A stretch of 62,517 nt of DNA, filler included, from Collodictyon triciliatum (Eukaryota): assembly GCA_043381765.1 (NCBI GenBank). It is 40 parts of 40 records of this genome, joined end to end, with 100 filler letters (N's around TTAATTAATTAA, not from the genome) between each part and the next. Parts side by side here need not be neighbours in the genome. Positions count along the whole stretch, not along the records: positions 10,995 to 12,463 come from JBHJMP010010995.1; 39 more parts are not named here. One strand, 5' to 3'. The notes beneath the pieces were generated by a model. It worked only from the letters and a program-made list of their open reading frames with translations. It was not told the origin of the DNA and made no database searches. Shown piece by piece: positions 11,151-12,463 of the stretch. Position 1 is the stretch's first letter; every line of letters begins with the position of its first letter. The translations under genes and the position numbers were made by a program.

Positions 11151-12463
11151 TTAATAAAGTACCTGAGCATTGTCTTTGCCAATATCCAGGACACGAGTAT
11201 GCTCAATAATGACCCAACATGTGTAGTCGTCAAATGGTGTAAGTTTAGATCCAGCAGCAGGAACAGCAGCATTAGTTGTAATGCTAGATGATTATACACT
11301 ATTTGTGTTTCCAAATTGCAGACCGACATGTATTATTCCAGAATTTGAAGCATTGTATCCCGACAGCTCAAATTCGTCACTGTAGTCACTTCGAGTCGTT
11401 GACTAACGGAGAGCAAAAAGAGTCGGTGTTTTCCAATAGGTTTCTTCACAATCCAATGGATGAACAGCATTTAGTATATTAACTAATGTGCATTGTTGTT
11501 GATACACCGCTTTGTTTGATGCATAAAACATACCCTGTCCTGAGTAAGAAGTTATAATGTTTGTTGATGCAGGAACTAATGCAGCAGCGCCAGTAGTAAT
11601 ATTATCTGTTGCGAATCTATTAAAGTTAACTTGGCCAATCATTTCAGCTGAGGTATTGTATCCTAGCGCTTTCATGAGATATGTAAGCGACTCTGGACAG
11701 TAATTATTGCAAACGCCAACAACTCCGCTAATTAACAGTCCATTCTTTTCTGAAATAGCAACAGAAGGTTGGTTAGCGTATCCCGCATTTGTGAATTGTA
11801 TTGGCACAGACGGCTGAATTTTACCATTAATGGTAAGCCGAGCCTGAGACAAGCCCTCCGGAAAGTGAAGACGGTCCGTACCAAGATATGTTACAGTACC
11901 AGTCTCAACCCCCGAGTAAAAATACAATAGACAGCATTGATATTTGAGCACTGCACTTATATATTTTGATTGGAATGGCCTGAAAAATTTCGAGCAATAG
12001 GAAGCTGTGTTACGAAATAAGTCTCAATAGGAATCTGCAAATTCTTGGATACAAGATATTGAATTGGAGCATTATTATACGATGGTTCTGTTTGAATGTA
12101 ATTAATATTCATTCTAATGTCTTAAAACCAATACTGCAAATTATTTAATGAAGAACCTACCCAGGTATTATAATCAAAAGGTGTTGCAGTAGCAGCTATA
12201 GGAGATGTTAATACACCTTGCGTGAATAAATCAGATGAGGGTGCCATCCAATTACAAATTTCAAGCGAATTTGGGCTAGGAGATAAGCCGGTAAAAGTGT
12301 TTTAATATTCATCAACCCAAGGTATCGCAGTGGAAAAGTAATCTGTAATTTAGCAGATTTTTCATTATTTGCATTTAATCCAGTCGGATACGTTTCAGCT
12401 CCCAACAATAATGCTTTACTTCGGTCCAAAATAGATTGTGAAAGTCCCATACTACCCGACATT
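11151..12463 (-). pseudogene. Decayed major capsid protein (double jelly-roll type) resembling Polinton-like virus MCPs
   Basis: Joining frames gives about 435 aa: ITFPLRYLGLMNIKTLLPAYLLAQIRLKFVI / YWF*DIRMNINYIQ..LQIPIETY..NINAVYCIF / ARLTINGKIQPSVPI..ESLTYLMKALG..FALR*..ELSGYNASNSGIIHVGLQF..CWVIIEHTRVLDIGKDNAQVLY*. Intronless, with 2 frameshifts (near 12250 and 11915) and 4 internal stops. Confidence 0.7.

Follow-up and report, generated by a model that had tools for sequence, protein, structure and literature searches.

A broken gene for a predicted viral capsid protein occupies the minus strand of a 1,469-bp contig in the window, by which we mean the whole stretch of DNA that was analysed (62,517 bases). 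The N-run table and the sequence indicate that the window is composed of approximately 40 unrelated contigs of ~1.46-1.47 kb each, which are ordered by decreasing length; between them stand artificial spacers, all with the same composition (44 N, TTAATTAATTAA and 44 N). Genes that are adjacent in the window therefore provide no genomic context for the capsid gene. The GC content of the capsid contig is 0.379, as compared with a window median of 0.359 (contig table), and microsatellite-like runs are present at many contig ends in the window. The contig and its features, from the upstream to the downstream end of the gene, are as follows.

10995..12463: contig carrying the capsid gene, 1,469 bp, with artificial spacers on both sides
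12277..12462, minus strand: capsid piece 1, in frame -1, corresponding to approximately residues 167-227 of P0007, a 605-aa relative; tblastn with P0004, another relative, aligns from 12450 to ~12277
12275..12276, minus strand: first frame break, from frame -1 to frame -3, with a short homopolymer run adjacent
11914..12274, minus strand: capsid piece 2, in frame -3, running from the last part of jelly roll 1 into the first part of jelly roll 2
12122-12124 and 11957-11959, minus strand: in-frame stops of piece 2 (ORF translation and tblastn)
within 11909..11921, minus strand: second frame break, from frame -3 to frame -2, in an interval that includes a five-G run at 11909-11913
11154..11908, minus strand: capsid piece 3, in frame -2, comprising most of jelly roll 2 and extending to the natural C-terminus
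11403-11405 and 11292-11294, minus strand: in-frame stops of piece 3 (ORF translation and tblastn)
11151..11153, minus strand: natural stop codon TAA, in the same place as in intact relatives
10995..11150: downstream flank of the capsid gene, 156 bp, without recognisable coding potential or repeat and single-copy in the window

The capsid gene as assembled and the rest of the window

On the minus strand, the stop-to-stop ORFs over 11151-12463 form a chain of fragments. Using the longest frame as a query (P0001), with stops written as X, we retrieved the 436-aa protein P0004, an intact relative (E 4.5e-137). When P0004 was compared with the whole window by tblastn, it aligned with three colinear minus-strand pieces and with nothing elsewhere. 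Piece 2 is 76% identical to P0004 over 123 aa (aligned 12277-11909), and piece 3 is 83% identical over 259 aa (aligned 11921-11154) with only 3 gap positions, which upholds the preliminary description of an intronless gene that lies in ORF fragments over this interval, is crossed by two frameshifts and ends at a natural C-terminus. The intact proteins P0004, P0005, P0006 and P0007 terminate at the same point as the window copy, whose final codon lies at 11154-11156 and is directly followed by the stop.

At its upstream end, the gene is incomplete. The window copy covers residues 167-605 of P0007 only, and the match extends almost to the contig end (12463), with at most one codon left over, which indicates that the contig edge cuts the gene and that the N-terminal ~166 residues are absent for this reason. 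The sequence of ~435 aa described earlier is colinear with its relatives along its length, but it is a fragment that represents the C-terminal ~73% of a protein of 520-632 aa. P0004 itself corresponds to residues 170-605 of P0007; its initial 'MG' was considered as a true N-terminal start and rejected, as longer relatives extend upstream.

The earlier account of the breakage was accurate for the two frameshifts but incomplete, as four in-frame stops are present besides. Because two frame breaks and four stops interrupt the gene, the window copy is predicted from its sequence to be unable to make a capsid protein. Of the six motifs from which a capsid protein had been proposed, five fall on invariant or near-invariant columns of the family, but the 'IRL' that ends the first motif is out of frame: relatives switch to the other frame past 12275-12276, and these three residues were therefore misread.

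Elsewhere in the window, we found no second copy of the capsid contig, which matched only itself by blastn. Pfam searches of 55 further window ORFs returned ordinary eukaryotic domains only, and other contigs were found to carry ubiquitin, a kinase exon, a TCP-1 exon, LRR and an FkbM methyltransferase. Neither Pfam on these 55 ORFs nor tblastn identified an ATPase, a penton or an integrase in the window, and a search with Rfam over the window gave no match. One further contig contains a polymerase fragment.

14209-15486, minus strand: pPolB fragment on the contig at 14133-15601, with a 425-aa open frame and a match to Pfam DNA_pol_B_2 (E 3e-10)

In Polinton/Maverick elements, the MCP gene is linked to a protein-primed PolB of this type, a retroviral-type integrase and a maturation protease. 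Polymerase motifs are present in this fragment, and its N-terminal exonuclease part is apparently missing. The closest cluster in the Atlas has chiefly viral members, with Preplasmiviricota the commonest assignment, and the GC content of the contig that carries the fragment (0.206) is the lowest in the window. The fragment may be a second virus-derived fragment; because its contig is unlinked to the capsid contig and differs from it in composition, it may instead belong to another element or be an organelle plasmid gene.

Several other contigs carry open frames. The contigs at 1-1473 and 39205-40666 have GC contents of 0.53-0.56, contain related tandem repeats and are open in several frames on both strands, with no Pfam match. 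The plus strand of 31381-32847 is open from end to end of its contig (489 aa) and has no Pfam domain; the sole relative found for it, 28% identical, is a hypothetical protein from the green alga Cymbomonas tetramitiformis with a length of 1,485 aa. At 27114-28007 on the minus strand lies an intact-looking ORF of 297 aa, which begins with a hydrophobic segment at its N-terminus and to which Pfam assigns an FkbM-type methyltransferase domain (E 6e-10). An open frame of ~196 aa at 56373-56961 on the minus strand has no Pfam match and may resemble the C-terminal region of ORF2 from a non-LTR retrotransposon.

Fold and relatives of the capsid protein

The fold was assigned on P0007, an intact clade-mate of the window copy. 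AlphaFold2 models of P0007 were obtained with 23 sequences (pLDDT 72.0, pTM 0.79) and with 51 sequences (pLDDT 82.7, pTM 0.84), and both models feature two successive beta-sandwich domains. When P0007 was compared with the PDB by Foldseek, 228 chains matched at E<=1e-3, and the best 25 of the 228 are all double jelly-roll capsid proteins. The PDB matches include the capsid proteins of SGIV (8hif; E 6e-16, target-normalised TM 0.57), EhV-201, PBCV-1 (Vp54), faustovirus and ASFV (p72). Foldseek probability was 1.00 over ~600 alignment columns against the PDB and against BFVD. Within BFVD, the top three matches of both models are the same unnamed viral proteins (E 1e-16 to 1e-20, TM 0.55-0.67), for which a literature search on the three accessions found nothing; the next matches are capsid proteins from adintovirus, NCLDVs, virophages and adomavirus.

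Taken together, the model of P0007 and its Foldseek matches support the identification of the gene as one for a double jelly-roll major capsid protein (MCP) of the kingdom Bamfordvirae, with two successive eight-stranded jelly rolls in a single chain, as the preliminary description had suggested from its motifs; the search returned neither a different fold nor cellular proteins as best matches, and the proteins matched are viral capsid proteins. Of the two jelly rolls, the fragment in the window includes the second in full and the final part of the first. Judging from the fold, the protein would in an active virus form trimeric, pseudo-hexagonal capsomers of an icosahedral shell.

By sequence, the protein belongs to a family that lacks names. 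A phmmer search over 1.84 billion representatives identified 23 relatives. A profile search identified 32, which are all labelled 'hypothetical' and of which the full-length ones measure 538-632 aa; over both searches, full-length members have 520-632 aa. Public relatives number at least 50, all of them unnamed, and the intact ones of 436-605 aa are 83-85% identical to the window copy. P0007 is 94% identical to P0004, and close relatives in general are 83-94% identical to each other or to the window copy. The relatives at this level of identity come from environmental data sets, and the family is present in pond and lake data.

Named protein families were not matched with confidence. Pfam searches of the window pieces, P0004 and the relatives gave matches at chance level only, and the gathering cut-offs of PF04451 (Capsid_NCLDV) and PF16903 (Capsid_N) were reached by none of 23 family members, one of which shows a weak match to Capsid_N below the cut-off (E 0.0088). 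Sequence searches of the PDB with single proteins returned no meaningful match, and at E<=10 the family profile retrieved none of the sequences in the PDB, which include mavirus and NCLDV capsids. A tblastn search with P0007 against 50,697 phage records likewise gave no match at E<=10, and a pattern search with the alignment of closer relatives matched 502 stretches, none of which was confirmed. The ESM Atlas neighbours of P0004 are viral clusters, in which Capsid_N or Capsid_NCLDV is annotated in a minority of members, and we treat this result as a lead only. The suggestion that the sequence may represent an undescribed clade is not secured, as at least 50 relatives are public and intact ones reach 83-85% identity; all of these relatives are unnamed, and the family has no Pfam model.

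Virus lineage

Using an alignment of a more distant subgroup of the family, we obtained two loci of ~2.9 kb in a MAG from a pond.

JAIYDG010000179.1, 1-2887: locus L001, in a pond MAG labelled 'Bacteroidetes bacterium'
JAIYDG010000419.1, 1-2872: locus L002, in the same pond 'Bacteroidetes bacterium' MAG

On the coding strand of its MCP gene, and ~720 bp upstream of that gene, L001 encodes the C-terminus of a Pox_A32 packaging ATPase (E 7.8e-11; 42.3 bits, where the cut-off is 22.8). The two loci share a conserved small ORF of ~140 aa, which immediately precedes the capsid gene; in L001 it is situated between the ATPase and the MCP. The capsid gene of L002 is intact and encodes 547 aa; the ORF downstream of it (2434-2871) has no Pfam match. 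Because both loci carry a eukaryotic-virus capsid family and L001 also carries an A32-type ATPase, they are probably mis-binned virus contigs. Their subgroup is clearly homologous to the window clade but only ~35% identical to it, and the ATPase linkage is that of this relative. The six flanking ORFs of the two loci matched nothing in the window below E 0.6 (tblastn), and no penton, integrase or replication gene was seen linked to any family member. For the 32 relatives, the maximum contigs range from 1.0 to 24.9 kb (the longest is 24,938 bp). Polinton-like virus genomes measure ~15-40 kb, with which this range is compatible, but it is a measure of contig size and not of genome size.

The linkage to an A32-type ATPase in L001 and the finding that no relative lies on a contig larger than 25 kb favour a small Polinton-like virus (PLV), and the lack of an NCLDV match at the Pfam cut-offs points the same way. 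We conclude that derivation of the capsid gene from a small Polinton-like dsDNA virus is probable but not proven, and to this extent the lineage named in the preliminary description can be retained. In a recent study, 'PLV' is described as spanning several deep lineages, some of which have NCLDV-like capsid modules (Bellas and Sommaruga, 2026, bioRxiv 10.64898/2026.06.19.733378), which suggests that 'Polinton-like' is the best available label and not a fine assignment. The PLVs or Aquintoviricetes described in that study, which include Tetraselmis viruses and PgVV/Gezel, resemble the present family in having a double jelly-roll MCP of 500-600 aa. Further points of likeness are an A32-type ATPase near the MCP (in L001), contigs of at most 25 kb and occurrence in ponds and lakes. 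The family differs from them in having no sequence-level match to any named PLV, and the protein M4QM72 of Tetraselmis viridis virus S1 ranks only 45th-49th by fold in BFVD.

A different source, namely a giant virus (Nucleocytoviricota, including small Mriya-like relatives) or a virophage, appears quite improbable to us, even though the best named Foldseek matches are NCLDV capsid proteins and one of the 23 members shows the weak Capsid_N match noted above. The NCLDV MCPs (PBCV-1 Vp54, SGIV MCP and ASFV p72; PF04451/PF16903) share the fold at a target-normalised TM of 0.43-0.60. They differ from the family in sequence, with 8-10% identity to it, and the family, in which the Pfam cut-offs for these capsids are reached by no member, lacks large contigs, as none of the 32 relatives lies on one above 25 kb. 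The virophage MCPs (mavirus 6g45, Qinghai Lake virophage and Sputnik-type) also have the same fold, a similar length of ~575-606 aa and a Foldseek probability of 1.00. However, they stand below the top Foldseek matches, with mavirus 6g45 at rank 49 in the PDB and others at ranks 7-16 and 47-50 in BFVD, and they have no sequence-level match to the family profile, which argues against them as it does against the NCLDV capsids. PLV-sized groups with an NCLDV-like capsid module, as described by Bellas and Sommaruga (2026), blur the boundary between PLVs and NCLDVs and lend this alternative some of its weight.

Within the preferred Polinton-like assignment, the capsid family, for which Pfam has no model, could represent a PLV lineage that is absent from published capsid HMM sets, with the organism of the window as its first host link; we regard this idea as distinctly doubtful.

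Origin of the breaks

A tree of 41 rows groups the window copy with P0039, P0007 and P0004 in a four-row clade (SH-aLRT 100), and the highest identity that it reaches in the tree alignment is 85% (420 columns). The terminal branch of the window copy is 0.13, as compared with 0.03-0.06 in its three intact sisters. We also examined conserved columns, defined as those invariant in 18 intact relatives (63-100% identity), with P0004 not used in defining them. The window copy is changed at 18 of 184 such columns, through 15 substitutions, 2 stops and 1 gap, whereas P0004, which is intact and equally close, is changed at 2 of 183 (Fisher p = 2.8e-4; for substitutions alone, 1e-3). This excess of changes at invariant columns in the window copy favours real decay. 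We lean, with moderate confidence, towards real decay of an integrated Polinton-like virus copy, of which we infer the lineage, the integration and the genuineness of the decay alike. The window copy would then be what remains of a virus genome that had become integrated in that of the sequenced eukaryote and is decaying there, and this remnant would have been assembled as a contig of its own.

The breaks may instead have been introduced by assembly, if short reads from many closely related, intact or near-intact endogenous PLV copies were collapsed into a sequence whose breaks exist in no real copy. As reported by Bellas et al. (2023, PNAS, PMC10120064), MCP-only contigs of less than 1,600 bp account for 17% of the MCP hits in protist WGS assemblies, and many of the stops and frame shifts on such contigs are false-consensus artefacts of multi-copy elements, with premature stops that vanished after error correction. 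The capsid contig is likewise short (1,469 bp) and MCP-only, and both of its frame breaks lie at short homopolymer runs. Furthermore, the metagenome contig of L001 also shifts frame within its MCP, between 2489 and 2612, which indicates that breaks arise in assemblies of this capsid family. However, the 15 replacements at invariant columns, several of which are radical, are not expected from a mixture of functional variants, and a terminal branch two to four times as long as those of the sisters also argues against a collapse of near-intact copies. In addition, just 2 frame breaks in 1.3 kb do not resemble raw long-read noise. We consider an assembly origin of the breaks unlikely, if by no means far-fetched.

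The preferred reading, decay of an integrated copy, also places the gene in the genome of the eukaryote, and the capsid contig is silent on this point: examination of its sequence, its ORFs and searches within the window revealed no host junction, terminal repeat or second viral gene. Because the contig has no host flank, integration is inferred. The earlier argument that decay implies an endogenous element is accordingly not secured, both for lack of this flank and because short MCP-only contigs, according to Bellas et al. (2023), often carry artefactual breaks. The missing flank would also be consistent with free virus DNA, or DNA of another organism in the culture or sample, that was co-assembled with the eukaryote, as would the occurrence of relatives at 83-94% identity in environmental data and of two family members in the pond 'Bacteroidetes' MAG. 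We nonetheless judge such a foreign origin to be very improbable, as four stops and two frame breaks, if real, are incompatible with a replicating virus. The GC content of the contig (0.379), which is near the window median (0.359) and unlike that of the pPolB contig (0.206), is weak evidence in the same direction.

A ciliate-type code in which TAA and TAG are sense codons, so that the gene would be less broken than it appears, has a practically negligible probability: the internal stops are indeed four TAA or TAG codons with no TGA among them, but in intact relatives they stand opposite codons that specify three different amino acids, none of them glutamine, a TAA terminates the gene at the very position where its relatives end, and the two frame breaks persist under any code. 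Stop-codon reassignment was rejected for this reason.

The case closely matches a published pattern, that of an MCP-only short contig of an endogenous PLV in a fragmented eukaryotic assembly. The endogenous PLV MCP genes that Bellas et al. (2023) describe on short protist contigs share with the present gene an MCP-only contig of less than 1,600 bp, apparent stops together with frame shifts, and a fragmented eukaryotic assembly. In both cases, moreover, it takes sensitive comparison to recognise the capsid; 121 MCP clusters are reported in that study.

The case also calls for caution, as the order of genes in the window is an artefact of joining and as assembly may be the source of breaks on contigs like this one. 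Broken PLV capsid genes are, moreover, a common sight in protist genomes. Endogenous Polinton-like viruses fill these genomes and may act as defences against giant viruses. The fragment described here is small, broken and located on an orphan contig, and its value is as a pointer for a search for intact copies in the full assembly and its reads, and as a member of a family for which there is no public model. Fragments that are tied to a host help to connect virus clades known only from metagenomes with the organisms that they infect. If the family were indeed an uncatalogued PLV lineage, the capsid gene would provide the first host link for a clade that is otherwise seen only in environmental data.
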